Part shown: positions 8,533-31,848 of the stretch, one piece after another
How the letters are laid out: the number at the start of each line of letters is the position of its first letter
Numbering within the stretch: position 1 is the stretch's first letter
Source of the DNA: Nostoc sp. PCC 7120 = FACHB-418
GTDB lineage: Bacteria; Cyanobacteriota; Cyanobacteriia; Cyanobacteriales; Nostocaceae
Reading direction: 5' to 3'
Length of the DNA stretch: 32,000 bases
NCBI RefSeq assembly: GCF_000009705.1
Contig: NC_003272.1
Span: 4,350,001 to 4,382,000 of the forward strand
Translations under genes and position numbers: made by a program
The notes under the pieces: model-generated
What the model saw: the letters and a program-made list of their open reading frames with translations, nothing else
What the model was told of the DNA's origin: nothing
Databases searched by the model: none

Positions 8533-10221
8533 TTGACAATCAGCAAATCACAGAAGCAAAAAATGAAACATCAGGGGTTTAACTTTTCTTCCTTAAGAAA
8601 TTTATTCTCGGTTTTATCCTTACCAACTGGAATCACAGCTTTATTAGTTGCTTCTAGCGGGTTCATGCTAGTACCTAGTGGAGTTAATGCTAGTGCTGCG
8701 CCAACGTTGACAGCGCAGGTTCCCACGACAGCGCCAGTAATTTATGTCAATCCAACAACTGGTGCAGATACGGCTAGCGGTGGTACGACAGCAGCAACAC
8801 CCTACAAAACAATTACCTTTGCGCTCAATCAAGCCCAACCAGGGGCGATTATTCAATTAGCACCCGGAAACTATAGCAGTGAAACTGGGGAACAATTCCC
8901 CTTAATTCTCAAACCAGGGGTGACGCTACAAGGTGATGAATCTACTAGAGGTCAAGGTGTCTTAATTACAGGTGGTGGTTTCTATACCAGCCGTACCTTC
9001 GCCAGACAAGATATTACCATTTTGGCTAATAACGATACCACGATCGCCGGCATCACCGCCACCAACCCCAATCAACGTGGTACTGCTGTGTGGGTAGAAT
9101 CCAGCAATCCCACCATTAGAAACAATACTTTTACCAATAGTGTTAGGGAAGGCGTTTTTGTCACTGGTACAGGAAACCCCAAAATTCAAGGTAATATTTT
9201 TATCCAAAACAAGGGTAATGGAATTTCTGTAGCCAGATCAGCTCAAGGAGAGATTAGTAATAACTTATTCCAAGATACTGGTTTTGGGATTGCGATCGGT
9301 GGTACTTCCACGCCTTTAGTAGCAGAAAACCAAATTGTACAGAACCAAGACGGTCTATACATCTCAGAGACAGCCAAGCCTGTTTTGCGTAAGAATGTTA
9401 TTCAAAACAATAAACGGGATGGCATAGTAGCAACCGTTAATGCTCAACCAGACCTTGGTACTAGTGAAAATCCTGGTGGTAATTTAATCCGCAGTAACGG
9501 TCGTTATGATGTAAACAACGCCACCAGAACAGTCCGCATTTTGGCTGTGGGTAATGATATTGACCAGAAAAAGATTTTTGGTCAGGTCGATTTCGTCGCT
9601 GCTACTGTTGAACCACCACCTTCTGGTCAAGGTACAGCCTTTACGGACGTAGCCACAAATTACTGGGCAAAAGGTTACATTGAAGCCTTAGCTTCCCAAA
9701 ATATTATTGCGGGTTTTCCTGACGGCACTTTTAGACCCAATGAGCCTGTCACCCGCGCCCAATTTGCCACTATTATCACCAAAGCCTTAACACCACAAGC
9801 TAAACGCAACGCCATTAATTTCCGAGATGTCAGCAGCAATTTCTGGGCTTTTGCAGCAATTCAAGCTGCATATCGGAGTCAATTTGTCTCCGGTTATCCC
9901 GATGGTACATTCAAACCACAGCAGGAAATTCCCAGAGTCCAAGCATTGGTGTCTTTAGCTAATGGACTAGGCTTAACTGCTAACAATCAAAATGTCATCT
10001 CTATCTATTCTGATGCTGGTCAAATTCCTGGTTATGCAGTTGGGCCAGTTGCAGCTGCTACCACAAGGCAATTAGTGATTAACTATCCTACAGTTAGTCA
10101 ACTCAATCCTAATCGTCCAGCTACCAGAGCAGAAATTGCTGCCTTTGTTTACCAAGCATTAGTCAATGCTGGACGCGCACAACCACTGCCATCATCTTAC
10201 CTAGTTCAAGTTCCCCAATAA
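8533..10221 (+). CDS. Cell-envelope protein: right-handed beta-helix repeats plus three C-terminal SLH domains
   Basis: Repeated N..I..N/G beta-helix motifs are followed by three SLH-like modules (FTDV..NYWAKGYIEAL...GFPDGTFRP; FRDVSSNFWAF...GYPDGTFKP; a third ends in RPATRAEIAAFVYQAL). The track start is TTG; the ATG at 8563 (MKHQ) is a likelier start. Confidence 0.8.
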   Translation: MTISKSQKQKMKHQGFNFSSLRNLFSVLSLPTGITALLVASSGFMLVPSGVNASAAPTLTAQVPTTAPVIYVNPTTGADTASGGTTAATPYKTITFALNQAQPGAIIQLAPGNYSSETGEQFPLILKPGVTLQGDESTRGQGVLITGGGFYTSRTFARQDITILANNDTTIAGITATNPNQRGTAVWVESSNPTIRNNTFTNSVREGVFVTGTGNPKIQGNIFIQNKGNGISVARSAQGEISNNLFQDTGFGIAIGGTSTPLVAENQIVQNQDGLYISETAKPVLRKNVIQNNKRDGIVATVNAQPDLGTSENPGGNLIRSNGRYDVNNATRTVRILAVGNDIDQKKIFGQVDFVAATVEPPPSGQGTAFTDVATNYWAKGYIEALASQNIIAGFPDGTFRPNEPVTRAQFATIITKALTPQAKRNAINFRDVSSNFWAFAAIQAAYRSQFVSGYPDGTFKPQQEIPRVQALVSLANGLGLTANNQNVISIYSDAGQIPGYAVGPVAAATTRQLVINYPTVSQLNPNRPATRAEIAAFVYQALVNAGRAQPLPSSYLVQVPQ

Positions 10222-10901: not shown

Positions 10902-10973
10902 GCCGATGTGGCTCAGTGGTAGAGCAGCTGATTCGTAATCAGCAGGCCGTGGGTTCAAATCCCATCATCGGCT
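10902..10973 (+). tRNA. tRNA-Thr (anticodon CGU)
   Basis: Manual cloverleaf: acceptor GCCGATG/CATCGGC, D arm GCTC-AGTGGTA-GAGC, anticodon arm GCTGA-TTCGTAA-TCAGC (U33, CGT, A37), variable AGGCC, T arm GTGGG-TTCAAAT-CCCAT, discriminator T. No CCA is encoded. Confidence 0.9.
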
Positions 10974-11123
10974 TGGTTTTCATAAAATCATATTTTTGTC
11001 TTGACTAATTCTTGTGTACAGTGACAAATTAGAGGCTATTTATAAAGTAAATCTAAAGGAGAGCTATCAGATAAAAAGGCAGCGATAAGATACTGTTTGT
11101 AGAGTGTATTTACATAGGAAACA

Positions 11124-11507
11124 ATGAGACGAAAGTCTTATTCTACAGACCTTAATGACTCAGAATGGGCAATTTTAGCTCCTTTGATTCCACCCGCTAA
11201 ATGCGGTGGGCATCCCCGAACAACTGATATGCGAGAAGTATGCAACGCTATCTACTACCATCTGAAAACAGGTTGTCAGTGGGATATGCTTCCAGGGGAT
11301 TTTCCTCCTAGTTCAACTGTTTACAGCTACTATCGTAAATGGCAAAAACGAGGTATCTGGGAGCAAATGAATCATACTTTGCGCGATCAAGTTCGTCAAA
11401 AAATGGGGAAGTCAACTCAACCCACGGCGATCGCGGCAGACAGCCAGTCGGTAAAAACGACTGAAAAAAGGGGGATGTGTACGGTTTTGATGGTGGCAAG
11501 AAGGTAA
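11124..11507 (+). CDS. IS5-family transposase, OrfA (N-terminal part)
   Basis: 127-aa ORF with the typical N-terminus (LNDSEWAILAPLIPP...GHPR...R...NAIYY.LKTGCQW..LP). Confidence 0.8.
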   Translation: MRRKSYSTDLNDSEWAILAPLIPPAKCGGHPRTTDMREVCNAIYYHLKTGCQWDMLPGDFPPSSTVYSYYRKWQKRGIWEQMNHTLRDQVRQKMGKSTQPTAIAADSQSVKTTEKRGMCTVLMVARR

Positions 11508-11917
11508 AAGGACGAAAGCGGCAAACTTTGGTTGATAGTCTGGGACTTTTGTTAAAAGTGGTTGTAAGTGAAGCAAATGCTGGAGAAAGATTACTTGCCG
11601 CCTATACTTTGATGGAACTGTTAGAAGAGCGTCCAGAATTACTGGAAAAAGTTGAAGTCATCTGGGTTGATTCCGGCTATGACGGTGATAAATTTGCGCT
11701 CTCTGTTTGGCTGATGATTCAAGCTCATGTTGAGGTAATCCGGCGTACTAATCAAGAATTTCAGGTTTTGCCCAAACGGTGGGTAGTAGAAAGAACATTT
11801 GGCTGGTTAAACCAGTACCGTCGTCTCAGTAAGGATTATGAGCGTCTCCCAGAAATGAGTGAGGCTGCCATATATGCCGTTATGACTCGTATTATGCTAC
11901 GTCGTCTAGTCGTCTAA
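11477..11917 (+). CDS. IS5-family transposase, OrfB (DDE part), probably fused to OrfA by a -1 frameshift
   Basis: It lies in the -1 frame relative to OrfA. The overlap contains AAAAAAG (11464-11470). Reading through gives ...TTEKKGDVYGFDGGKKVKGRKR..., a GKK.KGRKR motif I associate with IS5-family enzymes. Confidence 0.8.
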   Translation: MYGFDGGKKVKGRKRQTLVDSLGLLLKVVVSEANAGERLLAAYTLMELLEERPELLEKVEVIWVDSGYDGDKFALSVWLMIQAHVEVIRRTNQEFQVLPKRWVVERTFGWLNQYRRLSKDYERLPEMSEAAIYAVMTRIMLRRLVV

Positions 11918-12165
11918 AGATTTACTTTATAAATGGTCTCTTATTTGTCGTCGGTGACAAATTGATGTCGTTGTGACAAATTATTGTCATCCAACTTAGT
12001 AACTCGCTTCCATATATATTTGTGACAAATTATTGTCATTTTTCGGAAAAGCAACAATTTATATATGGAGTTTCTCTATATATTTAGCCCCTATTATAAG
12101 CGTTTGCATTCAAAAAGCTCTTTTAATCACTTCTATGAGTAGCTTATCCTGAATAACTTTAGTTA

Positions 12166-12222
12166 CAAGCCGATGACGGGATTTGCTTTCAACCCTCTAC
12201 TTCTTGGAAATTAATTACACCA
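12166..12222 (-). ncRNA. Delocalized (orphan) homing crRNA: degenerate repeat plus a tRNA-Thr-matching spacer
   Basis: On the minus strand, 12222 to 12186 is a degenerate repeat that keeps only the 3' handle GAGGGTTGAAAG. It is followed by CAAATCCCGTCATCGGCTTG (12185 to 12166). That spacer matches CAAATCCCATCATCGGCTTG at 10956-10975 at 19 of 20 positions. Confidence 0.8.
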
Positions 12223-12254
12223 TCAGACAACGTAAGGCAGTTTCATATCCAATT

Positions 12255-12577
12255 TGTTTTCACCATGTATTACCGGAAGGAGGGTTGCAACCTGACGGAG
12301 CAAGCTGATTTGGTAGAAGCTGTTAATCTTTCAACCCTCCCATTACTGGAAGGAGGGTTGCAACGATCGCGCACAATATAAAGTTCTGAATATTCAAACT
12401 TTCAACCCTCCCATTACTGGAAGGAGGGTTGCAACGTTAAATTTTGGATGCGATCGCCCCACCGCTTCCTTTCAACCCTCCCATTACTGGAAGGAGGGTT
12501 GCAACGCGATGGATAAAGATACTAACTTTTTCTTCATCAGCTTTCAACCCTCCCATTACTGGAAGGAGGGTTGCAAC
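12255..12577 (-). CRISPR. Type V-K CRISPR array: 4 perfect 37-bp repeats plus 1 degenerate terminal repeat, 4 spacers
   Basis: Plus-strand repeat CTTTCAACCCTCCCATTACTGGAAGGAGGGTTGCAAC occurs at 12541-12577, 12469-12505, 12399-12435 and 12328-12364, with a degenerate copy at 12255-12291. Spacers are 35, 33, 34 and 36 bp. In the transcribed (minus) orientation the repeat is GTTGCAACCCTCCTTCCAGTAATGGGAGGGTTGAAAG. Confidence 0.95.
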
Positions 12578-12774: not shown

Positions 12775-13000
12775 AATTGGGGAGGGTTCCCCCTTGATCG
12801 GGGGTGATTGGGTAGCCACTACAGCAGTACATCCGCGCCCTTATTGCTGGGAGCGCACCTATCCTGTCTATTGGCAGCAGCATCAGGGTGAGCAGCTACC
12901 AGGGTCAGAAAGCAAGACTGTATTGCTACAGTCAAACTAACCCTCATTTAACACAATTCAGAGGCTGCAAGCAGCATGAACTGCGGCGCTATTACATATT
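12775..13000 (-). ncRNA. Cas12k tracrRNA locus (boundaries approximate)
   Basis: It lies between the cas12k stop and the array on the same strand. The minus-strand sequence ATATGTAATAGCGCCGCAGTTCATGCTGCTTGCAGCC...CACCCCCGATCAAGGGGGAACCCTCC is GC-rich and stem-rich. It is nearly colinear with the ShCAST tracrRNA/sgRNA scaffold as I recall it. It contains CCCTCC and GCTTTC segments complementary to the repeat 3' end GGGAGGGTTGAAAG. Confidence 0.8.
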
Positions 13001-13024: not shown

Positions 13025-14944
13025 TCAACTTCGCCTAGCTAGGCGGAGACTATAAGCATAGAGGGCTAATTCTTTTGCTTTATCCTGCGGACTGCCACGA
13101 ATAGGTTGTTTACCTTCCTCAATCACAATTCCTATCTGAGCAGCTTTACTTTGAATACTTTGAATTAATCTGCCATAGCTCCATTGATGGACGTTAACTC
13201 GATACTGTTTGGCATATTTTTGCTGTATTTCTGAGGAGCTAGGACATTTTGCTTCGGCTATAGCTTGAATTTCGCTTTGAACAATTTCTCGTATATCTCC
13301 TAACTTAGGTAGGACTATACTGCCTGCTTTATAGGTCTGTGCGATCGCTACAATTTCTTTAGCTAGTAATCGGTCTACATATTGCCCTAACTCAGATGCC
13401 CCAAATTGATTAGGAGAGAAACTTTTTTGTGCTTTATGGCGTTCGTGGGATAGCGATCGCTGTTGTCGTCGTTGACGATTTAGAAGTTCGTAATTGTCGC
13501 CTAGTAACTGGCGGAGACTCCGATAAGTTAAAACTTTACCTGCAATCGCATCAACTACAGCGATAGTTGCAGGTTTTTCTAGCCCCAAGCTTACTCCAAC
13601 CAAAATATGTGATTGACCCTGGTACAGGGGTTTACTAGGACGATCAAAGGAATTGTTGATGCGAGTCAGTGTTGATTCTTTACGTTTGATAAAAGCGAGT
13701 TGTGTTTCGCTAAGGTCACTTTTATCCTTCATCTTGGTGATGAATTTGGTAATCTCCTCTGCTTTCTCTTGACGAACTTGTTCTGTTCCTTCAGCAGTCC
13801 AAAGGCGATTGTCAACACAGCAGTAAAGAGCTAAGTGTCCAATATTCCAAGGTTCGCCTTTACCTTCACCTTGTTGCCAAGCTAAACGACCATTTCTGAG
13901 TGTAAATAAACCACTAGAATGCTGATTTTTACTTTTGCGTTTAGTTTGTTGGTCTTCCAAGAAGCGTTTAAACCAGTACAGTTGACGACTATCGCAGTAA
14001 ACTTCAAAAATTAAATCGCTTAAACCATTGAAGTGAACACATAATCTACCTTTTTCGTTTGTTGACCAAACTAAATCTTCATTAGTCTCAAAAACCACAG
14101 GAAAAGGGATAGAACTAGATCGGGTTAAGAGAATATCCTGCCAGCGTTTGGCTTCAGCATTATTTTCTGGAACGGTGGTTGTAGCGGTGAAGAGTGTTTC
14201 CAACCATTTAGAGTACGTTAAATCTCGTCCCTTGGGAATCCGACTTGTTAGTTTGTCTGTTAACCGTTGAATTTGGATTTCAACTTTACGGCGGCGTTTA
14301 GCAAATTTTTCGGGGTTTTCTTCTTTGTCATTGAGTTTGCAGCCATTTTTCAGCAGATAACTGATGGCACTACGACTGAGTATGTCGTCAGTTTCTTGGT
14401 AAGCGTCAAATAATTTACGAGATAAGCTTCGGTCAGGATTGGAAGCAGATGATTTTTTAGATTGTTTAGTTTTTCCTCTTTTAGTTAAAAGAGTTTTAGG
14501 ATCAGATTCTGGTGTAGTTATTGCCAAAATCTCAGATGCTTTGGTACGAATTGCCTCTAAGCTAAAACCACTAATTTCTACTAATTCAACATCGCTGTTG
14601 AACATTTCTATCCAGCGTAATTTGCCATCTAGCTGTTGTTGTAGCCGTTTCTGTATAGTCAGCCAAGATTTGTAGATGTAATCAACAATATGAATTGCTG
14701 ATATATAGAAACGACTAGGCTGACCTGTAAAACTAGGGTCAGTTTTCAGGGGTTGGCAAAGCTGGGAAACAACAGTTGATGGCAGTTTGCCATTTCTTCG
14801 CCATTTCTCAAAATCTGGATGTTTACTAAGCTGCTGAAGCAGTTCGTTAATTAGAGGTGTGTTCGATTCTGCCATTAACTTCCAGAGTTTTTGGCGGGTA
14901 GATTCACTGGCAATTAAGCGACATTGAATAGTTTTTTGGCTCAT
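13025..14944 (-). CDS. cas12k: Cas12k (type V-K effector, naturally nuclease-deficient)
   Basis: 639 aa counted from the Met of MSQKTIQCRLIASESTRQKLWKLMAESNTPLINELL. It is colinear over its full length with the ShCas12k sequence as I recall it, through ...QPIRGSPQDKAKELALYAYSLRLARRS. The 13 extra N-terminal codons in the track ORF (to 14983) would overlap the divergent promoter. Confidence 0.95.
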   Translation of the reverse strand: MSQKTIQCRLIASESTRQKLWKLMAESNTPLINELLQQLSKHPDFEKWRRNGKLPSTVVSQLCQPLKTDPSFTGQPSRFYISAIHIVDYIYKSWLTIQKRLQQQLDGKLRWIEMFNSDVELVEISGFSLEAIRTKASEILAITTPESDPKTLLTKRGKTKQSKKSSASNPDRSLSRKLFDAYQETDDILSRSAISYLLKNGCKLNDKEENPEKFAKRRRKVEIQIQRLTDKLTSRIPKGRDLTYSKWLETLFTATTTVPENNAEAKRWQDILLTRSSSIPFPVVFETNEDLVWSTNEKGRLCVHFNGLSDLIFEVYCDSRQLYWFKRFLEDQQTKRKSKNQHSSGLFTLRNGRLAWQQGEGKGEPWNIGHLALYCCVDNRLWTAEGTEQVRQEKAEEITKFITKMKDKSDLSETQLAFIKRKESTLTRINNSFDRPSKPLYQGQSHILVGVSLGLEKPATIAVVDAIAGKVLTYRSLRQLLGDNYELLNRQRRQQRSLSHERHKAQKSFSPNQFGASELGQYVDRLLAKEIVAIAQTYKAGSIVLPKLGDIREIVQSEIQAIAEAKCPSSSEIQQKYAKQYRVNVHQWSYGRLIQSIQSKAAQIGIVIEEGKQPIRGSPQDKAKELALYAYSLRLARRS

Positions 14945-15026: not shown

Positions 15027-15479
15027 ATGGAAGGAAAGTTCTACACAAGCACAGAAGCATCAGAAATTACTCATTGCTCTCGCCGCCAGTTGCAGTATTG
15101 GCGAGAGAAAGGAGTTATAGTACCTACGGTTAACAGTAGTGGCAAAGGTCGTAATGTTTACTACTCTAAAGCTGATTTACTTGCATTAACAGTAATGGAG
15201 CAGTTGCTGTCTACTGGGTTAAATTTTGACCTTTGCTATGCAGCATTGCAAACACTGCGCAAACAGGAACCTTGGTTATTTGATGAGTCTGTCCCAGAAG
15301 AAAAGATGAAGCGGCTCATGTTATTACCCACGCGATCGCCTGAACAACCTTTGCAACTAGCAGAGTTTGACAAGCAAGCGGCACTAGAAGCACTTTGTCA
15401 TGGACAAACTGTGATTCCTTTTTGGAGCGATCGCATTCATCAACAATTAAGAGAGAATCTTAAAAGCTTTAGTAGCTAA
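15027..15479 (+). CDS. cvkR: MerR-type transcriptional repressor of V-K CAST (CvkR-like)
   Basis: It is divergent from cas12k. The MerR HTH (YTSTEASEITHCSRRQLQYWREKGVIVP) begins right at the N-terminus. I chose the Met of MEGKFY (150 aa), because the track start at 14973 would overlap the cas12k 5' end. Confidence 0.85.
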   Translation: MEGKFYTSTEASEITHCSRRQLQYWREKGVIVPTVNSSGKGRNVYYSKADLLALTVMEQLLSTGLNFDLCYAALQTLRKQEPWLFDESVPEEKMKRLMLLPTRSPEQPLQLAEFDKQAALEALCHGQTVIPFWSDRIHQQLRENLKSFSS

Positions 15480-15533: not shown

Positions 15534-17411
15534 TTAATATTTCTTGATAATTTCGGGATGCAGCTTATATTGTCTGCCATTCTCGTGATTATGCTCTCGA
15601 ACAAAATCCTCCGAAGATTCAAAACTTAAGCTTTTACCCATTGCTTTTCCAATTAGTGTTAGCAAATTATTTGCCCGCATCTGGAAGAAACCTTCAAAGT
15701 CATCTCGCCGCAAAGTTTTTGGAGATATAGCGTGCGATCGCAATATTTCATCAAGCCTTGTAGCTGATGTCCCACACAGTTCAAACTCCTCTAAATAAAC
15801 AGAAGGGGCTTTACTACCAATCTTTTTGTTTGTTTTGGCGCTTAAAGGTGTGCGATTAATCAAGCAGTTATACTTTTTGGGATCAATTCCTTTTTTGCGA
15901 CACCATGCCACAGGAAAGATATGGTGCGAATCTATCTTTTCTTCAAAATAAATCACATCATTGATTTCTTCCCCAGTACACCAATCAATTGCCCCCTCAC
16001 GTCGTAGTAAAGCAGCTAAACCTTGGTACACTGCCCCGTAACGTTTTCTAACGCCAATCAATCGATCAAAAGAAAAATCCGCTTGCACAATGGTGAGTGG
16101 TAGTGAACCACCTGCCAACCAATCTGGCACTTCTATAACGTCTCTTCCGGCTCGTGCCTCGTACCAGCGTGTATATATTTCACCAAACATCCCACACCAT
16201 AACCAGCGTTCCAGCATAGAGCGTACTTGAAAAGAACGGGAACGCTCTCCTAGAACAGTGAAAATGGCGCTGAGGATGACTAATTGAATGGGGTAAGCTA
16301 AATCATCTGCATCGAAGATTTTTTGGTTATGAAGAAAACGAGCAGACTCTTCAAAACCTTTAGTAATTGGGTCAGCCCATTTCTGATACTCCTCTTTGGT
16401 GAGTTTCAAAACTTCAGCGCGATCGCCTGCAACGCCTGGTAATTTATCGATGTTCCAACCTTGTTTAGTAGCTTCTATCCTCTTGGCGTAACCAGCAACC
16501 AAAGTAACTGCTTGGACAAAATCGGTGCTGCGTAGCTTACGTAAGACTTTTAAAGATTGGAAGCGATTTTCGCGCTGTTTCCAATCATCTCTTAAACTAA
16601 AGTCGGAAGTGCAATAGCTGGAACTCATTAAGTCAAAATAATTGAGGTCACATCCAGAAGTGTTTGTATCTTCAAAGACTTGACAAACGGCTTCTTTTGG
16701 TAAAGAGTCACGCAGTTGGATCACAGGTATTTGATAATGCTCAAATTTTTTGAGAATTTCTAGTTCTAAGATGTCAATTAGCTCCAGTTTTTGAGGATCG
16801 TACTGCCAATATTTAGAAAATTTACTCCGCCATTCAGAAAAAAAGAAAACTTTGGATAAGGGGAACAATAGCGCCTCATATTCTTTTTCAGGAGTAGAAC
16901 AATCAATCAGACCACCCGTGAATATTCGCGCAATTTTCGATTCAGGTAAGGCAATGATTGCACTACGACGATCGCATTCTGAATTAAGGCATTTTTTAAT
17001 ATCTAGGTAGTACCACTTTTTAATAATTTTTTGGCTTTTCTGGTCTTTAATGATTACAGGTAGCTCAGATAACAACACCATAAACATGGTTGTCAGGCGT
17101 TGCTGTCCATCAAGAATTAATAAGTTTGGCTCATGATTTTCTGGTTTTAATACCCCATCAACTAGGCGGGGTTTGAATTGTCGGCTTTGAATGCTTTGTT
17201 GGAGCATCATGACTACGCCAATTGGATAAGCAAGAGATATGCTGGTAAGCAAACGACGTACACGGGTATCATCCCAAACCCAATCTCTTTGAAAATCTGG
17301 AAGTTGAATGCGTCCATTTTTGATATCTTTCAGGACATCAAGGAGAAAATACTTAGTGATGTCAAAGGTAGAGATTGAGTTCATTTGGTGTTCTGCCATT
17401 TTTGTCCTCAA
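15534..17411 (-). CDS. DUF262/DUF1524 (GmrSD-like) putative type IV restriction / modified-DNA nuclease
   Basis: N-terminal DUF262 motifs (LPDFQRDWVWDD; ILDGQQRLTT) and a C-terminal His-Me/HNH-like DUF1524 motif (IDSHHIFP...NRTPLSAKTNKKIG). Confidence 0.8.
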   Translation of the reverse strand: MRTKMAEHQMNSISTFDITKYFLLDVLKDIKNGRIQLPDFQRDWVWDDTRVRRLLTSISLAYPIGVVMMLQQSIQSRQFKPRLVDGVLKPENHEPNLLILDGQQRLTTMFMVLLSELPVIIKDQKSQKIIKKWYYLDIKKCLNSECDRRSAIIALPESKIARIFTGGLIDCSTPEKEYEALLFPLSKVFFFSEWRSKFSKYWQYDPQKLELIDILELEILKKFEHYQIPVIQLRDSLPKEAVCQVFEDTNTSGCDLNYFDLMSSSYCTSDFSLRDDWKQRENRFQSLKVLRKLRSTDFVQAVTLVAGYAKRIEATKQGWNIDKLPGVAGDRAEVLKLTKEEYQKWADPITKGFEESARFLHNQKIFDADDLAYPIQLVILSAIFTVLGERSRSFQVRSMLERWLWCGMFGEIYTRWYEARAGRDVIEVPDWLAGGSLPLTIVQADFSFDRLIGVRKRYGAVYQGLAALLRREGAIDWCTGEEINDVIYFEEKIDSHHIFPVAWCRKKGIDPKKYNCLINRTPLSAKTNKKIGSKAPSVYLEEFELCGTSATRLDEILRSHAISPKTLRRDDFEGFFQMRANNLLTLIGKAMGKSLSFESSEDFVREHNHENGRQYKLHPEIIKKY

Positions 17412-17526
17412 GAAAGATGCGACTGTTCGTCATAGTTAGTACCTATGTACCTCAGCCTAAGATTCTCCTTGTGTTAACAGCAAGGGGTTTTTGGAGCAAT
17501 TGGTCGTGAGTAGCGATCGCTTTTAC

Positions 17527-17841
17527 TTATTCTTGAGGGAAGTCTGGAGGTAAAGCCACAATTCCTTTTGCAACAAGTTGTCTAAATTGGTTGAGCAAGT
17601 CTGCTTGCCGTAATATGCGGGTAACGTATTTAGGTCGTCGGCGAAAATTAGTTCCCCAGTCTTTAACAGTTTTTGGGCTAGTACCTGTAACTTGGGCGAT
17701 CGCGTTAATGCAGGCTTTGCGATAATTACGTCCTGCTTCTTGTCTAACCCAACGGCGACAATACTCCGTCGGTTCAAGGGGCAATAGACGGAGCAGATCA
17801 ATTGAATAATTATTCTCATGGGAGTCTCTCCCAGTCTGCAT
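17527..17841 (-). CDS. Small HTH-containing protein (paralog 1)
   Basis: The 104-aa protein is clearly paralogous to the 18001-18318 product (shared EP.EYC.RWV....GYRKACI.A.A..TG.S..T...WG.NF.RRP.YVT.ILR.AD.LNQ). This supports this frame over the overlapping 17523-17900 ORF. Confidence 0.6.
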   Translation of the reverse strand: MQTGRDSHENNYSIDLLRLLPLEPTEYCRRWVRQEAGRNYRKACINAIAQVTGTSPKTVKDWGTNFRRRPKYVTRILRQADLLNQFRQLVAKGIVALPPDFPQE

Positions 17842-18000
17842 CTTTGGTTTTGATGAGTCAGATTAACCCAGCAGAGGCAGGGAGTATGAGGAAATGCCAC
17901 TCAGCTAACCTTTTACTCCTATGAATCCTGTGCTTGCTAAACCCAAATTAGAAAATATCTGCTCAAAGTACAAGTATTTTAGTCACGAATCACGACCAAA

Positions 18001-18318
18001 TTATTTTTGAGGATAATCAGGAGGTAAGACTATTTTTCTAATTTGGTTAAGCATATCTGCCATGCGTAGTATATGTGTCACATAGTTTGGTCTCCTGTCA
18101 AAGTTTTGTCCCCAATTTCCTATAGTTCTCTCACTTAGCCCGGTTGCTTCAGCTAAAGCAGCAATACAGGCTTTTCTGTATCCCCTTTCTTCAGAGGACA
18201 ACTCAACCCATCGTTGGCAATATTCCAAAGGCTCCAAAGGCTCCTCACTGAGCGCATCGATTCTATATTGAGTTGTCTGGGGATTACTGTCTATTACTCG
18301 GTTTATTCTTAATTGCAC
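18001..18318 (-). CDS. Small HTH-containing protein (paralog 2)
   Basis: 105 aa, paralog of 17527-17841. It is flanked by AGTCACGA(A/T)T motifs at about 17981, 18330 (inverted) and 18355. Confidence 0.6.
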   Translation of the reverse strand: MQLRINRVIDSNPQTTQYRIDALSEEPLEPLEYCQRWVELSSEERGYRKACIAALAEATGLSERTIGNWGQNFDRRPNYVTHILRMADMLNQIRKIVLPPDYPQK

Positions 18319-18408
18319 AATAACTCATGAATCGTGACTAGTTCAAAAATATTATGAGTCACGATTTGTGTAAAAAACACTGCAATGCCTGCGGCGGGCT
18401 ACGCCAAC

Positions 18409-18470
18409 GCATTCATCAACAATTCAGGGGCAATCTTCAAAGCTTTAGTAGCTAATTTGACGTTAAATAT
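18409..18470 (+). other. Relic of a second cvkR 3' end (last ~16 codons plus downstream sequence)
   Basis: By my manual alignment, about 54 of 62 positions are identical to 15433-15494. The frame and stop are preserved: RIHQQFRGNLQSFSS* against RIHQQLRENLKSFSS*. Weaker similarity continues about 25 bp further (TGTGGCTGCCA against TGTGGTTGCCA). Confidence 0.6.
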
Positions 18471-18582
18471 GTTAAGTTCTGTGGCTGCCATCTGGGAAAA
18501 TTATAGTTTTATACTTAACAACAGCAAATGAGAAAGCGTAGAATTATACCAAGCATCCTCTTAACCGAAAGCCGACCCTTTT

Positions 18583-20913
18583 ATGTCAGAAGTAATTGAC
18601 AAGAAATCTTTGAGTGAACGTGATATCTGTACAAAGTTTATTACACCTGCTTTAACTAATCGGGGATGGAATATCAGCACTCAGATTCGTGAGGAAGTGA
18701 CGCTGACAAAAGGTAGGGTGATTGTTAGGGGTAAGCTTACTAGTCGAGGTGAGCAGAAACGCGCTGATTATGTGCTGTATCACAAACCGGGTGTACCACT
18801 GGCTGTGATTGAAGCTAAAGATAATAATCACAGTGTCAGTGCGGGAATGCAGCAAGCGATCGCAACTGGTGAACTAATTGATGTACCATTCATCTTTAGC
18901 TCGAATGGCGACGCTTTTATGATGTGTGACTGTACAGTCACCGAAGGACAGCGAGAACGGGAAATTCCCCTCAATCAGTTCCCGACACCGGAAGAACTTT
19001 GGCAAAAATACTGCGATTGGAAGGGAATTGACTTACATATTCAGCCGATTGTGGCTCAAGATTATTATCCTAGTCCTGATAAAAAACAGCCACGCTATTA
19101 TCAACAGATTGCCATTAACCGGACAATTGAGGCGATCGCTAAAGGAGAAAACCGCATTCTGTTAGTGATGGCGACGGGTACGGGTAAGACTTTTACAGCT
19201 TTTCAGATTATCTGGCGGTTGTGGAAGTCAGGGGCGAAAAAGCGTATTCTGTTCTTGGCAGACCGCAACATTTTGGTTGATCAAACTAGAGTTAATGACT
19301 TTAAACCCTTTGGCTCAAAAATGACCAAAATTAAGCAGCGACAGATAGATACATCTTACGAGATTTATCTATGTCTGTATCAGGCGGTAACGGGAAATGA
19401 AGAGGCGAAAAACATTTATCGGCAGTTTTCACCAGGTTTTTTTGACTTAATTATTATAGATGAGTGCCATCGGGGAAGCGCGTCTGAAGATTCGGCATGG
19501 CGAGATATTTTGGCATATTTTAGCAGTGCAACGCAGATTGGCTTGACTGCTACCCCAAGGGAAACAGAAGAAGTTTCTAATAGTCTTTATTTTGGCGATT
19601 CAATTTTTACCTATTCGCTCAAACAAGGGATTGAAGATGGCTTTTTAGCTCCCTATAAAGTTATTCGCATTGACTTTGATACAGATTTGAGTGGCTGGAA
19701 ACCGAAGCCAGGACAAAGAGATAAATATGGTAAAGAAATTCCTGACCAAGTATTTAATCAGCGAGATTTTGATAGAACTCTGGTTTTAGAGAAGCGTACC
19801 GAGTTAGTCGCGCGGATTATTTCTGATTATCTCAAATCAAGCGATCGCTTTGCCAAAACTATCGTTTTTTGTGAGACGACTGACCACGCAGAACGGATGC
19901 GGGTGGCGTTGGTGAATGAGAATGCTGATTTGATGGCGGAGAATAGCCGCTACATTATGCGAATTACTGGGGATGATGCTCAGGGTAAAGCAGAATTAGA
20001 TAATTTCATTGACCCTGAAAGTAAATATCCTACGATTGTTACTACCTCTGAGTTACTGACGACTGGCGTTGATGCTAAAACTTGCAAGTTGATTGTTTTA
20101 GACCAGCGCATCCTGTCTATGACTAAATTTAAGCAAATTGTTGGTCGCGGTACGCGCATTGATGAAGACTATGGCAAAATGTTCTTCACCATTATCGATT
20201 TTAAGAAAGCAACACAGTTATTTGCTGACCCTGAGTTTGATGGTGAACCTGTACAAATTTATCAGCCCAAACCAGTTGATCCAATTGTTCCACCCGATAA
20301 TGGAGACGATGAGGTAATCATTGATGGTGAGATTACCCGCAAGCAAAAGCGGGAGAAGTATGTAATTGCAGACGAAGAGGTGTCTGTTGCTTTTATTCGT
20401 GAGCAGTACCACGGTAAGGACGGTAAGCTGATTACGGAATCGATTAAAGACTATACTCGCAAAACAGTTAGTCAGGAGTACGCCTCATTAGATGCTTTCT
20501 TGAAGAAATGGCACTCTACCGAACAAAAGCAGGCTATTATCCAAGAGCTACAGGAATTGGGTGTACCTTTGGAAGCGTTAGAAAAAGAGATTGGCAAGGG
20601 TTTTGACCCATTAGACTTGATTTGTCATGTTGTCTTTGACCAACCGCCACTAACACGGAAAGAAAGGGCGAACAATGTCCGCAAGCGTAATTATTTTAGC
20701 AAGTATAGTGAACAGGCTCGTAAGGTAATAGATGCGCTTTTGGATAAATATGCGGATGAAGGGATTGAAGATATTGAAAAATTGGATGTGCTGAAGGTTC
20801 ATCCTTTTGATAAAGTGGGTACACCAATAGAAATTATTCAGCTTTTTGGCAGTAGAAAAGAATATCTTAATGTACTTCAGCAGCTAAAAACGCAACTTTA
20901 TGAGATAGCCTAG
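18583..20913 (+). CDS. hsdR: Type I restriction enzyme, R subunit (HsdR)
   Basis: N-terminal PD-(D/E)xK nuclease region (ADYVLY...AVIEAKD) and SF2 helicase motifs (VMATGTGKT, IIDECHR, GLTATP, TTGVD, QIVGRGTR). Confidence 0.9.
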   Translation: MSEVIDKKSLSERDICTKFITPALTNRGWNISTQIREEVTLTKGRVIVRGKLTSRGEQKRADYVLYHKPGVPLAVIEAKDNNHSVSAGMQQAIATGELIDVPFIFSSNGDAFMMCDCTVTEGQREREIPLNQFPTPEELWQKYCDWKGIDLHIQPIVAQDYYPSPDKKQPRYYQQIAINRTIEAIAKGENRILLVMATGTGKTFTAFQIIWRLWKSGAKKRILFLADRNILVDQTRVNDFKPFGSKMTKIKQRQIDTSYEIYLCLYQAVTGNEEAKNIYRQFSPGFFDLIIIDECHRGSASEDSAWRDILAYFSSATQIGLTATPRETEEVSNSLYFGDSIFTYSLKQGIEDGFLAPYKVIRIDFDTDLSGWKPKPGQRDKYGKEIPDQVFNQRDFDRTLVLEKRTELVARIISDYLKSSDRFAKTIVFCETTDHAERMRVALVNENADLMAENSRYIMRITGDDAQGKAELDNFIDPESKYPTIVTTSELLTTGVDAKTCKLIVLDQRILSMTKFKQIVGRGTRIDEDYGKMFFTIIDFKKATQLFADPEFDGEPVQIYQPKPVDPIVPPDNGDDEVIIDGEITRKQKREKYVIADEEVSVAFIREQYHGKDGKLITESIKDYTRKTVSQEYASLDAFLKKWHSTEQKQAIIQELQELGVPLEALEKEIGKGFDPLDLICHVVFDQPPLTRKERANNVRKRNYFSKYSEQARKVIDALLDKYADEGIEDIEKLDVLKVHPFDKVGTPIEIIQLFGSRKEYLNVLQQLKTQLYEIA

Positions 20914-20938
20914 TTAATCATCTTTAAATTTGTTTTGT

Positions 20939-21931
20939 ATGGACGATCCAATAAAATACATTGACTCATCTATTAAAGGTTTACAGGATAAACTATCTAC
21001 ATCTAATTCGGTGTTAGATATTGAAGTACAGGCAGAACTTTCTCATATTTTATCTATCTACCGACGATTAAAAACTGCTTTTTTAATTGCCAAGGTTCAA
21101 GATAACAAAAATAAGCTAGAACATATTGAAGCAATAGCGCCTAATCTTAATTTGGCAATTTCTGCATTACAAGTAAATTCTAACAAGGTTTTGGCAAGGA
21201 ACATTAGGCGAGATGCAGAATACTTCATACGGAGAATTGAAAATCCTGTCACTGCATTTTTCGTGAATAATTTCTTTAAATTTCTTTATTCTACAGAAAC
21301 TCATACAAAAGTAGTTATCGGTCTGTTTTTAGCTTTACCTATTCATCTATTAGCACCGATTGTTTTAGCATATATACTTAGTACATCCAATCTTTATTTA
21401 AAACCTTTATTTAAAGAACAATTAACAAAGCCCATATCTTCAGAAAATTTAGTAGAAGCACAAAAGCCAGAAGTAAAAACTCAAATAAAGTTGACAGAAT
21501 ATGAGTTTTATGAGGCATCCGTGCTGCTGGTATTATCAGCAATGTCAGGAGCGACTGGTAGTGTTGTAAGTATTATGTTGAGGCTGGATCAATATGGCAA
21601 TCCACGGTATAAAGAAACCTTACTTCCTATATTTGTGGGAGCATTCAAGCCAGCAATTGGGGCATTTTTAGGGATTTTTGTTTTTGCTCTCATCAATTCT
21701 ACACTTCTGCCTATTACAATTTCTAAAGATGAGGAAAAGCCAATTAATAGATGGTTGGCGTTTTTAGCAATTACTTTTGTTGTGGGCTTTAGTGAAAGAC
21801 TAGCAAATGATGTTGTTAGTCAAGCAGAAAGAATTGTACCAGGGAGAGGTGCTTCACAGGAAAAAAGCGAAACTTCTGCATCACAATTATCTGCACCTAC
21901 AGAAGAAGATAAAGAAAACGATAAAAGTTAA
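20939..21931 (+). CDS. Uncharacterised membrane protein (soluble N-domain plus ~4 TM helices) inside the type I R-M operon
   Basis: The ORF lies between hsdR and hsdM with 25-bp and 7-bp gaps. TM segments include VVIGLFLALPIHLLAPIVLAYIL, ASVLLVLSAMSGATGSVVSIML, LLPIFVGAFKPAIGAFLGIFVFALI and WLAFLAITFVVGF. I recognise no family. Confidence 0.6.
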   Translation: MDDPIKYIDSSIKGLQDKLSTSNSVLDIEVQAELSHILSIYRRLKTAFLIAKVQDNKNKLEHIEAIAPNLNLAISALQVNSNKVLARNIRRDAEYFIRRIENPVTAFFVNNFFKFLYSTETHTKVVIGLFLALPIHLLAPIVLAYILSTSNLYLKPLFKEQLTKPISSENLVEAQKPEVKTQIKLTEYEFYEASVLLVLSAMSGATGSVVSIMLRLDQYGNPRYKETLLPIFVGAFKPAIGAFLGIFVFALINSTLLPITISKDEEKPINRWLAFLAITFVVGFSERLANDVVSQAERIVPGRGASQEKSETSASQLSAPTEEDKENDKS

Positions 21932-21938
21932 GTAAGCA

Positions 21939-23393
21939 ATGTCAATTAGCACTACAATTAAGACTATTCAAGATATCATGCGGAAAGATGCGGGCGTTGA
22001 TGGTGACGCGCAACGCATTAACCAGTTAGTTTGGATGATATTCCTCAAGGTTTTTGATGCCCGTGAAGAAGAATATGAACTGTTAGAAGATAATTATAAA
22101 TCTCCCATTCCTGAAGGTTTGCGTTGGCGGAACTGGGCAGCAGATTCCGAAGGTATCACAGGAGATGGTTTACTAGATTTTGTAGATAATGCTTTATTTA
22201 AAACCCTTAAAGAACTAAGAACTACGGCAACTGATGCCCGTGGGCAGATGATTGGTAAGGTGTTTGAGGATGCCTACAACTATATGAAAAATGGCACTCT
22301 CATCCGCCAAGTAATTAATAAGCTCAATGAAGTTGATTTTAATAAAAAAGACCAGAAAAAACAGTTTAGCGAAATTTACGAGAAGATTCTCAAAGATTTG
22401 CAGAGTGCGGGGAATGCCGGAGAATATTATACTCCCCGTGCGGTGACAAAGTTTATTGTAGATAGAATTAAGCCGCAATTAGGGGAAATTGTATTTGACC
22501 CTGCTTGCGGTACAGGTGGCTTTTTAACCGCAGCAATTGATTACATTCGCCAACATTTTCAAAGTGCTGATGTGCCAGAAATTCTGCAACGGACGATTCG
22601 CGGAACTGAGAAAAAGCCGTTACCTTATAACCTGTGCATAACGAATTTGATTTTACATGGTATTGATGTGCCAGAAGCAGAACATGATAATACTTTGGCA
22701 CGACCATTGCGCGATTACAGTCCTCACGAACGGGTGGATGTAATTATCACTAATCCGCCTTTTGGTGGGATGGAAGAAGATGGAATTGAGGACAATTTCC
22801 CAGCTACCTTCCGCACCAGAGAAACGGCAGATTTATTTCTGGTGCTGATTGCTCATTTACTCAAGGAAGGCGGTAGAGGTGCAATAGTTTTACCAGATGG
22901 TACGCTGTTTGGCGAAGGTGTAAAAACGCGGATTAAAGAAAAACTCCTGCAAGATTGCAATCTGCATACAATTGTGCGCTTACCAAATGGCGTATTTAAT
23001 CCCTACACAGGTATTAAAACTAATCTGCTATTTTTCACTAAAGGGGAACCCACAGAAACGATTTGGTATTATGAACACCCTTACCCAGCAGGTTATAAGT
23101 CATACTCGAAAACTAAGCCGATTCGCTTTGAGGAGTTTGCACCGGAGCAAGAATGGTGGGATAACCGCGAGGAAAATGAATTTGCTTGGAAAGTTTCAAT
23201 TGCAGATTTGAAGGCGAATAATTACAACCTAGATATTAAAAATCCTCACAAAGTTGATGTAGAACACGCTGATTTAGATGAAATGTTAGCAGATCATCAA
23301 AAACTTATGGCTGAATTGGGTGAGGTGCGGAGTAAATTGAAATTTGAGTTGATAGAAGCGTTGAATGATCAAGTTGATAAAACTATAGAATAG
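21939..23393 (+). CDS. hsdM: Type I R-M N6-adenine DNA methyltransferase (HsdM)
   Basis: HsdM N-terminal domain, AdoMet motif I (VFDPACGTGGFL) and motif IV (IITNPPFGG). Confidence 0.9.
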   Translation: MSISTTIKTIQDIMRKDAGVDGDAQRINQLVWMIFLKVFDAREEEYELLEDNYKSPIPEGLRWRNWAADSEGITGDGLLDFVDNALFKTLKELRTTATDARGQMIGKVFEDAYNYMKNGTLIRQVINKLNEVDFNKKDQKKQFSEIYEKILKDLQSAGNAGEYYTPRAVTKFIVDRIKPQLGEIVFDPACGTGGFLTAAIDYIRQHFQSADVPEILQRTIRGTEKKPLPYNLCITNLILHGIDVPEAEHDNTLARPLRDYSPHERVDVIITNPPFGGMEEDGIEDNFPATFRTRETADLFLVLIAHLLKEGGRGAIVLPDGTLFGEGVKTRIKEKLLQDCNLHTIVRLPNGVFNPYTGIKTNLLFFTKGEPTETIWYYEHPYPAGYKSYSKTKPIRFEEFAPEQEWWDNREENEFAWKVSIADLKANNYNLDIKNPHKVDVEHADLDEMLADHQKLMAELGEVRSKLKFELIEALNDQVDKTIE

Positions 23394-23435
23394 TAGATAG
23401 AAACAAAATATCTTAAAATATATGGAGATTAGATT

Positions 23436-23660
23436 ATGCAGATGGAAGTAGTAGAATTTCAAGGTATTGTCAAAGATGGTGTAATTCAAATTCCTGAAAT
23501 TTATAAAGGAGAGCTAGATGGAGAATCTGTCAAAGTAATTGTTATGAAAAAAGTTAGAAAAACAGCAGCAGTAGATATTATTGCTGAACTCATCGAGCAT
23601 CCGGTGGAGTTTGAATGGCCTCCTTTGAACCGAGAAGAGATTTATGACCGCAATTCATGA
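23436..23660 (+). CDS. Putative antitoxin (AbrB/SpoVT-like) of a VapBC-type pair
   Basis: This 74-aa ORF overlaps the downstream PIN gene by 17 bp. Its N-terminus resembles a swapped-hairpin domain (GIVKDGVIQIPEIYKGEL). Confidence 0.55.
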   Translation: MQMEVVEFQGIVKDGVIQIPEIYKGELDGESVKVIVMKKVRKTAAVDIIAELIEHPVEFEWPPLNREEIYDRNS

Positions 23661-24066
23661 AAATGGCTATTTTCTAGATTCTAATATCTGGATTTATGCT
23701 CTAGCGAACAATCAAGATATTAACAAACGCAATATAGCTTGTCGTCTAATTGATGCTGAAGGAGTAATCATTAGTACACAAGTTATTAATGAAGTCTGTC
23801 TAAATCTAATTAAAAAATCTTCTTTCACTGAGCAACAAATAACACAGTTAATCGAGGCATTTTATAAAGGTTCTCACATCATTTCATTTAATCGTGATAT
23901 TTTGGTGAACTCTTCTAATCTTCGCAGTAGATATAAGTTGTCTTTTTGGGATAGTTTAATTGTTGCTTGTGCTTTAGCTGCGGGAGCAAGTATTCTCTAT
24001 TCTGAAGATATGCAGGATGGGTTAGTGGTAGATAGTCAATTACAAATTGTGAATCCGTTTAAATGA
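23644..24066 (+). CDS. PIN-domain toxin (VapC-like)
   Basis: Acidic PIN residues fall in the expected contexts (FLDSNIWIYAL; VINEV; FWDSLIVACA; SEDMQDG). Its stop overlaps the hsdS ATG (ATGA). Confidence 0.8.
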   Translation: MTAIHENGYFLDSNIWIYALANNQDINKRNIACRLIDAEGVIISTQVINEVCLNLIKKSSFTEQQITQLIEAFYKGSHIISFNRDILVNSSNLRSRYKLSFWDSLIVACALAAGASILYSEDMQDGLVVDSQLQIVNPFK

Positions 24067-24476
24067 AAGTAGATACATTTTTTCAAAATTTTGAATTGTT
24101 AACTGATGCGCCAAATGCAGTAGTAAAGCTGCGTGATTTGATTCTACAATTAGCTGTGAGAGGTAAACTTGTTTTCCAAAATAATAACGATGAACCAGCT
24201 AAAATATTGCTAAATAGAATTAAAGCCGAAAAGCAGGAAACATATTCCCAAAAAAGGGTGAAAACTATTAAATCTTTACCCCCGATTTGTGAACATGAAA
24301 CTCATTTTAAAAAGCCTCAAAATTGGGAATGGTGTCGTTTAGGAGATATTATTCATATTTCTTCTGGTAACTATCTTCCATCACACAAAATGGCAGATGA
24401 TGGACAAATACCTGTCTACGGTGGAAATGGTATTACAGGGTATCATGATCAAAATAATATTAATAAGCCTACTTTA

Positions 24477-25503: not shown

Positions 25504-26789
25504 TACTTTAGTAATTGGTAGAGTTGGCTATTATTGTGGCAGCATTCACATAACTCCGAATTCTGCTTGGATTACAGATAACGCGTTCGTAACCTATTTC
25601 TCAGAATCAAATATATACATTCGCTTTTTATATTGGCTTTTGAAGGCAACAAATCTTCAAGAAAATAATAATGCTACTGCACAACCTGTGATTTCTGGAG
25701 GTAAAGTATATCCCATCGTTGTTTGCTTACCACCACTTACAGAACAAAAACGTATTGTAGAGAAGTGCGATCGCCTGCTCTCAACCTGCGACGAAATCGA
25801 AAAACGCCAGCAGCAAAGGCAACAGAGCATTTTGAGGATGAATGAGAGTGCGATCGCTCAACTCCTCTCCTCCCAAAATTCCGACGAATTCCGCCAACAC
25901 TGGCGGCGCATTTGCAATAATTTTGACCTACTCTACAGCATCCCTGAAACAATTCCTAAACTGCGTCAGGCGATTTTGCAATTGGCTGTGCAGGGTAAAC
26001 TTGTGCGTCAAGATCCAAATGATGAACCTGCCAGTTTGTTGCTTGAAAAAATAAAGGTTAAAAAGGAAAAGCTGATTCAAGACAAGAAGCTTAAAGAGAC
26101 TCCATTATTACCTGCAATTACTCAAAATGAAATAGAGTACACGATACCAAATACATGGTGTTGGGCAAGGTTAGCTAATATTTGTGAGTTTATAACAGAT
26201 GGAACTCACTATACACCCAAGTATACCGAGCATGGGCGAATATTCTTATCATCTCAAAACGTTAAACCTTTTTCTTTCATGCCAAACAATCATAAGTTTG
26301 TTTCTGAAGAAGCATATCAAGGCTATATCAAAAATCGAAAACCAGAATTTGAAGATATACTTTTGACACGAGTTGGTGCTGGAATTGGAGAAGCTGCTGT
26401 TATAGATCAAAAATTAGAATTTGCAATTTATGTAAGTTTAGGATTGCTACGTCCATTCAAAGAATTCATAGATCCTTATTATTTAGTAATCTGGCTTAAC
26501 TCTCCGATAGGCACTAAACATTCTCAGAAAAATACCTATGGAAAAGGTGTTTCACAGGGTAATTTGAATTTAGGATTAATCCGAGGATTTGTTGTGTCTG
26601 TTCCACCACTTGCAGAACAAAAACGGATTGTAGAGAAGTGCGATCGCCTGATGTTCCTCTGCGATACCCTAGAAGCCAAATTGAAACAAGGGCGAGACAG
26701 CAGCGAGAAACTGATGGAAGTCGCAGCAAGGCAAGTGTTGGCGGTATAGGAATAGATTAGTTGTAGCGAAATTTCCTACTACCTCTTAT

Positions 26790-27194: not shown

Positions 27195-27294
27195 TGGCTG
27201 AAATTCCTCTTAGTAGCGATTACCACTGTTAATATTGATTAACAGATTCTACCCAAATGAGTCTGGGTATATTTTGGTAGTTTGAGGATTCAGG

Positions 27295-31533: not shown

Positions 31534-31548
31534 AATACATAATGTTAT
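31534..31548. promoter_or_regulatory. Second candidate CvkR operator, upstream of tnsB
   Basis: AATACATAATGTTAT fits AnnACATnATGTnnT and is 13/15 identical to the box at 14965-14979. It lies 36 bp upstream of the tnsB ATG at 31498. Confidence 0.6.
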
Positions 31549-31565
31549 TCTAAACGTGGAGAAAA

Positions 31566-31776
31566 CGACAGTCAATTTGTCATTATGAAAATATACAAAA
31601 CCTTTTTTGTAATTACTGAAGCGACAGTTAATTTGTCATTTTTGCGGAAAACGACATTTATTTAGTCACGTATGAGAAATAATGTAATAACTCTTAAATA
31701 GCTAAAACCTTTGTATTGCAAGGATTCATTCGACGACATTAATTTGTCACGACGACAAACAATTAGTCACTGTACA
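31566..31776. repeat. CAST end proximal to tnsB (I believe RE in ShCAST nomenclature) with five TnsB-type repeats
   Basis: ~18-bp repeats: CGACAGTCAATTTGTCAT at 31566-31583, CGACAGTTAATTTGTCAT at 31622-31639, CGACATTTATTTAGTCAC at 31652-31669, CGACATTAATTTGTCAC at 31734-31750 and CGACAAACAATTAGTCAC at 31753-31770. The terminal TGTACA is at 31771-31776. Confidence 0.85.
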
Positions 31777-31848
31777 TCTTGTGTACAGTGACAAATAATT
31801 AGTCACTGTACATCTTGTGTACAGTGACAAATAATTAGTCACTGTACA
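31777..31848. repeat. Two tandem 36-bp units, each TCTTG plus a 31-bp palindromic end-to-end mini-element
   Basis: TCTTG (31777-31781) is followed by TGTACAGTGACAAATAATTAGTCACTGTACA (31782-31812). TCTTG (31813-31817) is followed by an identical 31-mer (31818-31848). Each 31-mer joins the first 15 nt of one CAST terminus to the last 16 nt of the other. Confidence 0.9.

Follow-up and report, generated by a model that had tools for sequence, protein, structure and literature searches.

The question raised by this locus is what is encoded on the minus strand at positions 12166-12222 of the window (the whole stretch of 32,000 nucleotides of Anabaena/Nostoc sp. PCC 7120 DNA that was analysed), where a remnant of a CRISPR repeat, here called R*, is followed by a short spacer resembling a nearby tRNA gene. 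The evidence presented below leads us to conclude with high confidence that the homing guide encoded here belongs to AnCAST, the CRISPR-associated transposon (CAST) of type V-K in this strain. On sequence features, the identification of its guide RNA with what Saito et al. 2021 termed the "delocalized crRNA" and Ziemann et al. 2023 the "anchor spacer" is likewise supported.

The ends published for the element "Anabaena sp. PCC 7120_(1)", 4361015 and 4381776 (PMC9938897), correspond to positions 11015 and 31776 of the window and the transcription start of the tracrRNA, published at 4,362,990 (PMC9938897), to position 12990. Since all of these coincide with the window at an offset of exactly 4,350,000, the window spans chromosome positions 4,350,001–4,382,000 and the element is the published AnCAST. 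The full V-K gene set (cas12k, tracrRNA, array, tnsB, tnsC and tniQ) is present in the window in minus orientation (Table 1), the product of cas12k giving no match in Pfam. The cas12k-proximal terminus starts with TGTACAGTGAC at 11015 (TGTACA terminus) and the far terminus is written ...GTCACTGTACA at 31776, both being flanked by TCTTG, and the GTGACAAATT-type motifs of the ends are presumed to be TnsB-binding repeats. Between cas12k and the array lies a 216-nt stretch, 96.8% identical to the tracrRNA region of the Scytonema hofmanni ShCAST locus; its anti-repeat AACCCTCC begins at 12788 and a second segment, CTTTC, is found at 12912 (minus strand, towards lower coordinates). The tracrRNA, array and cas12k are known to be expressed and regulated, the published Northern blot covering the array only (PMC9938897).

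The cargo (noted at 15534–27400) includes a GmrSD-family nuclease (15534–17411) and an ORF of 776 aa (18583–20913) with the type I restriction HsdR-type domains HSDR_N, ResIII and EcoEI_R_C, while a Schlafen/AlbA_2-domain protein is encoded at 27421–28410. These proteins fit the defence cargo published for AnCAST.

Table 1. Features of the AnCAST locus and its attachment site, in window positions unless another locus is named.
Feature	Position	Strand	Evidence or remark
tRNA-Thr(CGT), directed toward the transposon, attachment site	10902..10973	+	ARAGORN; Rfam RF00005, 76 bits
GTT PAM, immediately 5' of the protospacer	10953..10955	+	sequence
Anchor protospacer: tRNA T-loop, 3' T-stem, acceptor 3' strand and 2 nt beyond the tRNA	10956..10975	+	19/20 match
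5-bp target-site duplication TCTTG, tRNA-side copy	11010..11014	.	same pentamer at 31777-31781 by the other end
cas12k-proximal/tRNA-side end (LE of Ziemann et al.), terminal 17 bp TGTACAGTGACAAATTA	11015..11031	+	direct-repeat family D4; published LE
IS5-family (IS1031-group) IS, 909 bp, inside the CAST end	11032..11940	+	inverted repeat I1; Pfam DUF4096, DDE_Tnp_1
Rest of tRNA-side end, repeated GTGACAAATT-type motifs, presumed TnsB-binding repeats	11944..12039	+	families D3, D4; aligns with related ends
Anchor (homing) spacer CAAATCCCGTCATCGGCTTG	12166..12185	-	sequence; identical across all PCC 7120-lineage assemblies
R*, retained 3' handle, 12 nt, GAGGGTTGAAAG	12186..12197	-	tracrRNA-pairing part of the repeat; exact match to repeat end
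R*, degenerate 5' part, repeat likeness lost	12198..12222	-	kept in sister elements L010, L011, L006
Pseudo-spacer of 32 nt and degenerate terminal array repeat (12255-12291)	12223..12291	-	family D1, 68%
CRISPR array: four 37-nt repeats GTTGCAACCCTCCTTCCAGTAATGGGAGGGTTGAAAG and spacers S1-S4	12292..12577	-	repeat finder
tracrRNA	12775..12990	-	96.8% identical to Scytonema hofmanni ShCAST locus L021; duplex prediction; published TSS
cas12k (all3613)	13025..14944	-	100% identical to Cas12k cluster of Anabaena sp.; 81% to ShCas12k
cvkR (alr3614), MerR-type repressor, divergent	15027..15479	+	Pfam MerR_1; PMC9938897
tniQ	28414-28920	-	Pfam TniQ
tnsC	28917-29747	-	Pfam TniB/AAA_22
tnsB	29751-31364, homology on to ~31420 in start-less frame	-	Pfam rve/Mu-transpos_C
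tnsB-proximal end (RE of Ziemann et al.), terminating ...AATTAGTCACTGTACA at 31776	31540..31776	+	published RE 4381776
TCTTG duplication, then two identical 31-bp end-fusion scars (31782-31812, 31818-31848) with TCTTG between	31777..31848	+	sequence; TRF
R*-spacer module of L011	8971-9027 of L011		compared with window 12166-12222

When analysing the stretch from the array to the cas12k-proximal end (11015), R* was found on the same strand as array and tracrRNA. An in-register alignment with the array repeat shows R* (12222–12186) to be identical at 20 of 37 positions, the match over its last 12 nt being unbroken and the remaining 25 nt diverged. Five copies of the handle GAGGGTTGAAAG were counted in the window, one in each of the four good repeats and one in R*, where 0.18 would be expected. 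The degenerate repeat at 12291–12255 is the opposite of R* in that its 5' half is kept and its 3' handle lost. The R* handle retains both segments complementary to the tracrRNA, GAGGGTT against AACCCTC (~12788) and GAAAG against CTTTC (~12912). In duplex predictions the canonical handle reached -18.2 kcal/mol at the anti-repeat and the handle of the degenerate array repeat stayed at the level of shuffled sequence; these values refer to a comparison of 14-nt handles only, as RNAduplex runs on whole 37-nt repeats were dominated by alternative pairings. In the single-guide design of ShCAST only ~13 nt of the repeat are needed, which fits the extent of the retained handle.

The spacer following this handle, read from 12185 to 12166 on the minus strand, was recovered by the repeat finder as one arm of an inverted pair (I3), the other arm being the 3' end of the tRNA gene at 10956–10975 on the plus strand, which reads CAAATCCCATCATCGGCTTG. 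The two are identical at 19 of 20 positions, the match extending 2 nt beyond the 3' end of the tRNA and the single mismatch, at spacer position 9, setting a G of the spacer against an A of the tRNA, and past position 20 the sequences part (TAAC... versus GTTT...). When allowing up to three mismatches the tRNA site is the only other match to the 20-mer in the window and none is expected, as judged from 100 dinucleotide-preserving shuffles. No PAM-flanked match elsewhere in the window was found for the array spacers S1–S4, the best reaching 17 of 20 positions and lacking a GTN PAM. The insertion geometry could also be read from the sequence; between the PAM and the start of the element at 11015 lie 59 nt, and the end adjoining the tRNA is the cas12k/array-proximal one. 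According to published rules for V-K systems the PAM is GTN and the distance from PAM to end 46–82 nt, with a mean of 62 (PMC9938897; PMC12416283), and a truncated repeat R* of ~12 nt is combined with an anchor spacer of ~17 nt (Ziemann et al. 2023, PMC9938897). The GTT PAM, the distance of 59 nt, the tRNA pointing towards the element and the cas12k-proximal end found here all fit these rules.

The original prediction, made from raw sequence without tools, had proposed a repeat remnant about 30 bp past the degenerate last repeat, with only its 3' handle kept and with a spacer matching the 3' end of tRNA-Thr at 19 of 20 positions. R*, handle and spacer were all present where it had placed them, the measured gap is 32 nt, and the position of the mismatch and the loss of identity after position 20 were confirmed. 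Its assignment to the V-K homing-guide architecture holds, every sequence-level feature defining that architecture being found here, and the comparison of S1–S4 agrees with its statement that the regular spacers of the array have no match to the resident site. The word "delocalized" is only relative, since R* is situated 142 nt (2 × 71) from repeat 4 and is thus in phase with the array in this element and not randomly displaced. A reading without tools rightly spotted a subtle and functionally important element, the guide by which a CRISPR-guided transposon obtains its safe chromosomal landing site.

To address how such a guide could be made, the surrounding sequence was scanned against consensus signals. 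No promoter-like site was found upstream of R*, and no terminator-like site either after the spacer or between the array and the orphan unit. A dedicated R* promoter was considered on the basis of TGTAAT at 12219–12214, which is kept as NNTAAT in four relatives, and was rejected, as -10-like hexamers are not enriched; they are present upstream of R* in 10 of 30 non-redundant loci compared with a shuffle mean of 13.3, and 95% of the shuffles reach the observed number. A conserved block upstream of R* was likewise dismissed as a functional element because the sequence downstream of the spacer is, by eye, about equally alignable in the same relatives, so that shared ancestry suffices as an explanation. 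With no promoter or terminator signal specific to R*, the simplest reading is read-through from the published tracrRNA/array precursor.

The guide would accordingly most likely be transcribed from the minus strand as the 3' part of a tracrRNA-CRISPR precursor starting at 12990. Its handle of 12–13 nt would then pair with the anti-repeat segments of the tracrRNA (GAGGGUU/AACCCUC and GAAAG/CUUUC), for which the complementarity has been computed, and by homology with ShCAST, Cas12k would be loaded with a guide that over its first 20 nt corresponds to the T-arm and acceptor 3' strand of tRNA-Thr(CGT). In analogy with ShCAST, Cas12k would read the GTT PAM at 10953–10955 and form a short R-loop on the tRNA gene, whereupon TniQ, TnsC and TnsB would insert the element ~60 bp downstream, with the cas12k-proximal end first and a 5-bp duplication; here the geometry is seen in the sequence and the mechanism is taken from ShCAST. 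The outcome would be a safe and conserved chromosomal landing site just beyond the tRNA gene.

As had been suggested together with the original prediction, other V-K CASTs were searched for orphan repeats. The comparison comprised 80 loci with relatives of Cas12k (58–88% identity). In each of them the first opposing tRNA downstream of cas12k was taken, and its longest inverted match in the interval from cas12k to this tRNA was determined, the handle not being used. An opposing tRNA within 5.5 kb was found in 49 of the 80 loci, and in 44 of these 49 the longest tRNA match lies directly after a GGTTGAAAG handle. The anchor matches are 12–21 nt long, mostly 17–18, all except one of the 44 are perfect, and the anchor spacer changes with the tRNA, of which ten types are represented (Leu, Thr, Val, Gly, Cys, Lys, Arg, Pro, Asp and Ser). 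The same procedure picked up ShCAST itself, with a spacer against tRNA-Leu, and a lower seed brought in the modules of L011 and L010. Three more Val loci, fetched by protein identity, showed 18/18 matches, each tracking its own tRNA-Val variant. A GTN PAM is present in 32 of 32 scored loci and the distances from PAM to end cluster at 57–64 nt across related loci. By its sequence, the element in the window is a typical member of the V-K family.

When R* was compared with the array repeat across 40 loci, identity at positions 1–24 was at background (0.03–0.47) and at positions 25–37 it was 0.8–1.0, save for one systematically different position. A spacing of R* at 2.0 periods, in phase with the array, is shared by the window, L006, L011, L056 and L070, and in most loci the spacing is non-integer, ranging from 0.6 to 4.8 periods. 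The idea that R* is in general a decayed last unit of the array was for this reason rejected; it is plausible for this subfamily only. Two loci of the survey are mentioned for their context. In Microcoleus vaginatus (L032, 8850–13600) the CAST adjoins a cluster of 24 tRNA genes and the anchor match, to tRNA-Lys(CTT), is just 12 nt long. A contig labelled "MAG: Rhizobium sp. Q54" (L066) carries a Cas12k locus of cyanobacterial type with an anchor spacer against tRNA-Asp and is probably mis-binned.

The V-K delocalized crRNA was described by Saito et al. 2021 (Cell 184:2441), as summarised in citing papers, and the anchor spacer with its truncated repeat R* by Ziemann et al. 2023 (PMC9938897), whose dataset includes AnCAST itself. 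The AnCAST guide resembles these in position, strand, handle of ~12 nt, tRNA-matching spacer, GTN PAM, distance of ~60 nt and tRNA orientation. It differs from the usual V-K anchor in its 20-nt match with one mismatch, compared with 17–18 nt, and in the spacing of R* from the last good repeat, which is exactly two repeat-spacer periods. A further close system, ShCAST of Scytonema hofmanni UTEX 2349 (L021), has a Cas12k 81% and a tracrRNA 96.8% identical to those of AnCAST, and its guide consists of the handle GGTGGGTTGAAAG and a 17-nt spacer, with a GTT PAM and 64 nt from PAM to end, but its target is tRNA Leu-TAG instead of Thr-CGT and its match is perfect. The short crRNA of ShCAST has reportedly been validated experimentally. 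Type I-F3 CASTs (Petassi et al. 2020) are similar to V-K in that a privatised guide with a divergent repeat homes to a conserved site while ordinary spacers serve other targets, but they use a Cascade/TniQ effector, a full-length atypical repeat and protein-coding or SRP-RNA genes as targets.

The kind of feature, its mechanism and the AnCAST locus are thus already known, and since both the architecture and the locus in this model organism have been published, little is added for the field in these respects. The sequence of the AnCAST anchor spacer is not printed in the available parts of the text and supplements of PMC9938897. In the accessible portions of the published descriptions we have not met the guide mismatches at positions 9–10, the IS in the tRNA-side end, the two 31-bp scars or the apparent 5' frameshift of tnsB.

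The lesions bear on an alternative in which the region is a homing guide in origin and, functionally, a fossil; AnCAST would be immobilised and decaying and its R*-spacer unit would no longer direct transposition. The IS is inserted 17 bp inward from the terminus, where it splits the terminal TGTACAGTGACAAATTA from the remaining end repeats. It is flanked by a TTA duplication (11029–31 and 11941–43) and encodes orfA (11124–11507) and orfB (11477–11917), annotated as alr3610/alr3611, a frameshifted orfA/orfB pair. When the IS is removed in silico the end aligns with those of L003 and L011, and assemblies of the PCC 7120 lineage either contain the IS or break there. Its family has been given in the literature and it was there termed "adjacent" to the system (PMC12416283, 2025 Microlife); its position inside the end probably impairs the mobility of the element. 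A further locus, L082, was considered as the same CAST in a different genomic context but actually has a scaffold gap (Ns) at the IS, which makes it uninformative.

The second lesion concerns tnsB, the product of which aligns with ShTnsB (PDB 7svw, chain residues 28–584). The homology begins at residue 28, in a frame that holds no ATG, GTG or TTG until the GTG at 31364, corresponding to about residue 47 of ShTnsB, and just upstream of tnsB, in a different frame, there is a 30-codon ORF with an ATG near 31498 (minus strand). This arrangement suggests either a frameshift in the 5' region of tnsB or an N-terminally shortened TnsB.

The mismatch in the guide, in a family where 43 of 44 relatives match perfectly, the IS in the end, the missing in-frame start of tnsB and a sister element (L010) with two mismatches and a mutated handle all speak for such a fossil. 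Against it, the ORFs of cas12k, tnsC, tniQ and, for the most part, tnsB are intact, as are the handle and the tracrRNA, the mismatch is an rG:dT wobble with the target strand, and the tracrRNA, array and cas12k are expressed and regulated (PMC9938897). Weighing both sides, we regard a guide that has lost its function as possible but not probable. Present-day activity of the PCC 7120 copy is itself doubtful given the guide mismatch, the split end and the lack of an in-frame start in tnsB upstream of 31364, and anyone using PCC 7120 as a native model of CAST mobility needs to reckon with the IS in the end and the possible frameshift in tnsB.

A guide that leads Cas12k to bind the tRNA gene without insertion, marking the site as occupied or modulating transcription of tRNA-Thr, would be in line with a complementarity that is short (20 nt) and imperfect, with the nuclease-dead nature of Cas12k and with the regulatory roles noted in the literature for derived repeats in other systems. 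We consider it very unlikely, as a PAM-to-end distance of ~60 nt fixed over dozens of loci and a scar with the same target pentamer are both signatures of insertion; moreover, the protospacer strand is the sense strand of the tRNA, which would place the R-loop on the template strand. A chance match, or a duplication of the tRNA 3' end of the integrase att type, as commonly carried by genomic islands inserted in tRNA genes, is effectively refuted by the absence of matches in the shuffles, by the recurrence of the same arrangement with ten tRNA types and by the conservation of repeat positions 25–37 in R*. The copy is moreover inverted, abuts a crRNA handle and lies at a depth of ~1.15 kb in the element (~240 bp once the IS is discounted), and the element has Tn7-like ends with a 5-bp duplication, with no integrase seen among the scanned proteins.

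Returning to the homing guide, its mismatch was compared with those of sister elements. The two sister CASTs at tRNA-Thr(CGT), L011 and L010, harbour homologous R*-spacer modules in which the mismatches are confined to positions 9–10. At these positions the guide reads GT in the window, AC in L011 (one mismatch) and GC in L010 (two mismatches), while all three tRNAs read AT. In the module of L010 (3922–3980) the handle is mutated as well (GAGAG, GGGTTGAGAG). Guide positions 9–10 correspond to nucleotides 64–65 of the tRNA, in the T-stem, and among 120 metagenomic tRNA-Thr genes sharing the flanking sequence, GC was found in 49, AT in 34, AC in 22 and GT in 15. One reading of these data, drawn from three elements, is inheritance of the guide from a host whose T-stem reads GC or GT. 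A scan of metagenomes for CASTs next to tRNA-Thr variants gave only one short contig with an end (L178) and no R*. That these native guides are imperfect at positions 9–10 is relevant to how far short Cas12k guides tolerate mismatches and to the way in which homing guides follow the tRNAs of their hosts.

When analysing the sequence beyond the tnsB-proximal end, TRF reported a 36-bp period with 2.7 copies (31754–31850). The layout is the end, TCTTG, a 31-bp unit, TCTTG, an identical 31-bp unit and then TCAAAG, so that the last unit is not followed by TCTTG. The unit is the near-palindrome TGTACAGTGACAAATAATTAGTCACTGTACA and agrees at 30 of 31 positions with the product predicted for a deletion between GACAAA direct repeats located 9–14 nt from one terminus and 18–23 nt from the other, from which we infer that the units are scars of earlier CAST copies lost by GACAAA-mediated deletion. 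As scar and resident element have the TCTTG target in common, the same nucleotide position has been hit at least twice, and this repeated use fits guide-directed homing. The two scars may represent two events, or one event followed by a tandem duplication. No match to the 31-bp sequence was found in the 89 loci searched.

In the nearly precise excision of Tn10, deletion between short direct repeats within the inverted termini leaves a palindromic remnant and the target duplication is kept. The scars described here are like those remnants in being small palindromic end-to-end pieces flanked by the target duplication, and differ in deriving from a Tn7-like CAST, in the 6-bp GACAAA repeat and in the remnant being present twice in tandem. 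They suggest that CASTs have repeatedly homed to one site and been lost from it.

Taken together with the mismatches, the scars allow a tentative picture, which we put forward as conceivable rather than likely: guides would be inherited from the tRNA of a previous host, tolerated when mismatched in the middle of the spacer and slowly corrected towards the new host, and the TCTTG scars would record repeated guide-directed visits to one nucleotide, each ended by microhomology-mediated loss. If true, the guide would keep a record of host jumps and partly set the host range. In L006, a 28-bp piece of a different CAST end (TGTACATTCACAAATTAGATGTCGCTGT) is located between the tRNA (9585–9656) and the terminus of the resident element, which from its sequence may be taken as a further indication that one attachment site received several insertions in succession.
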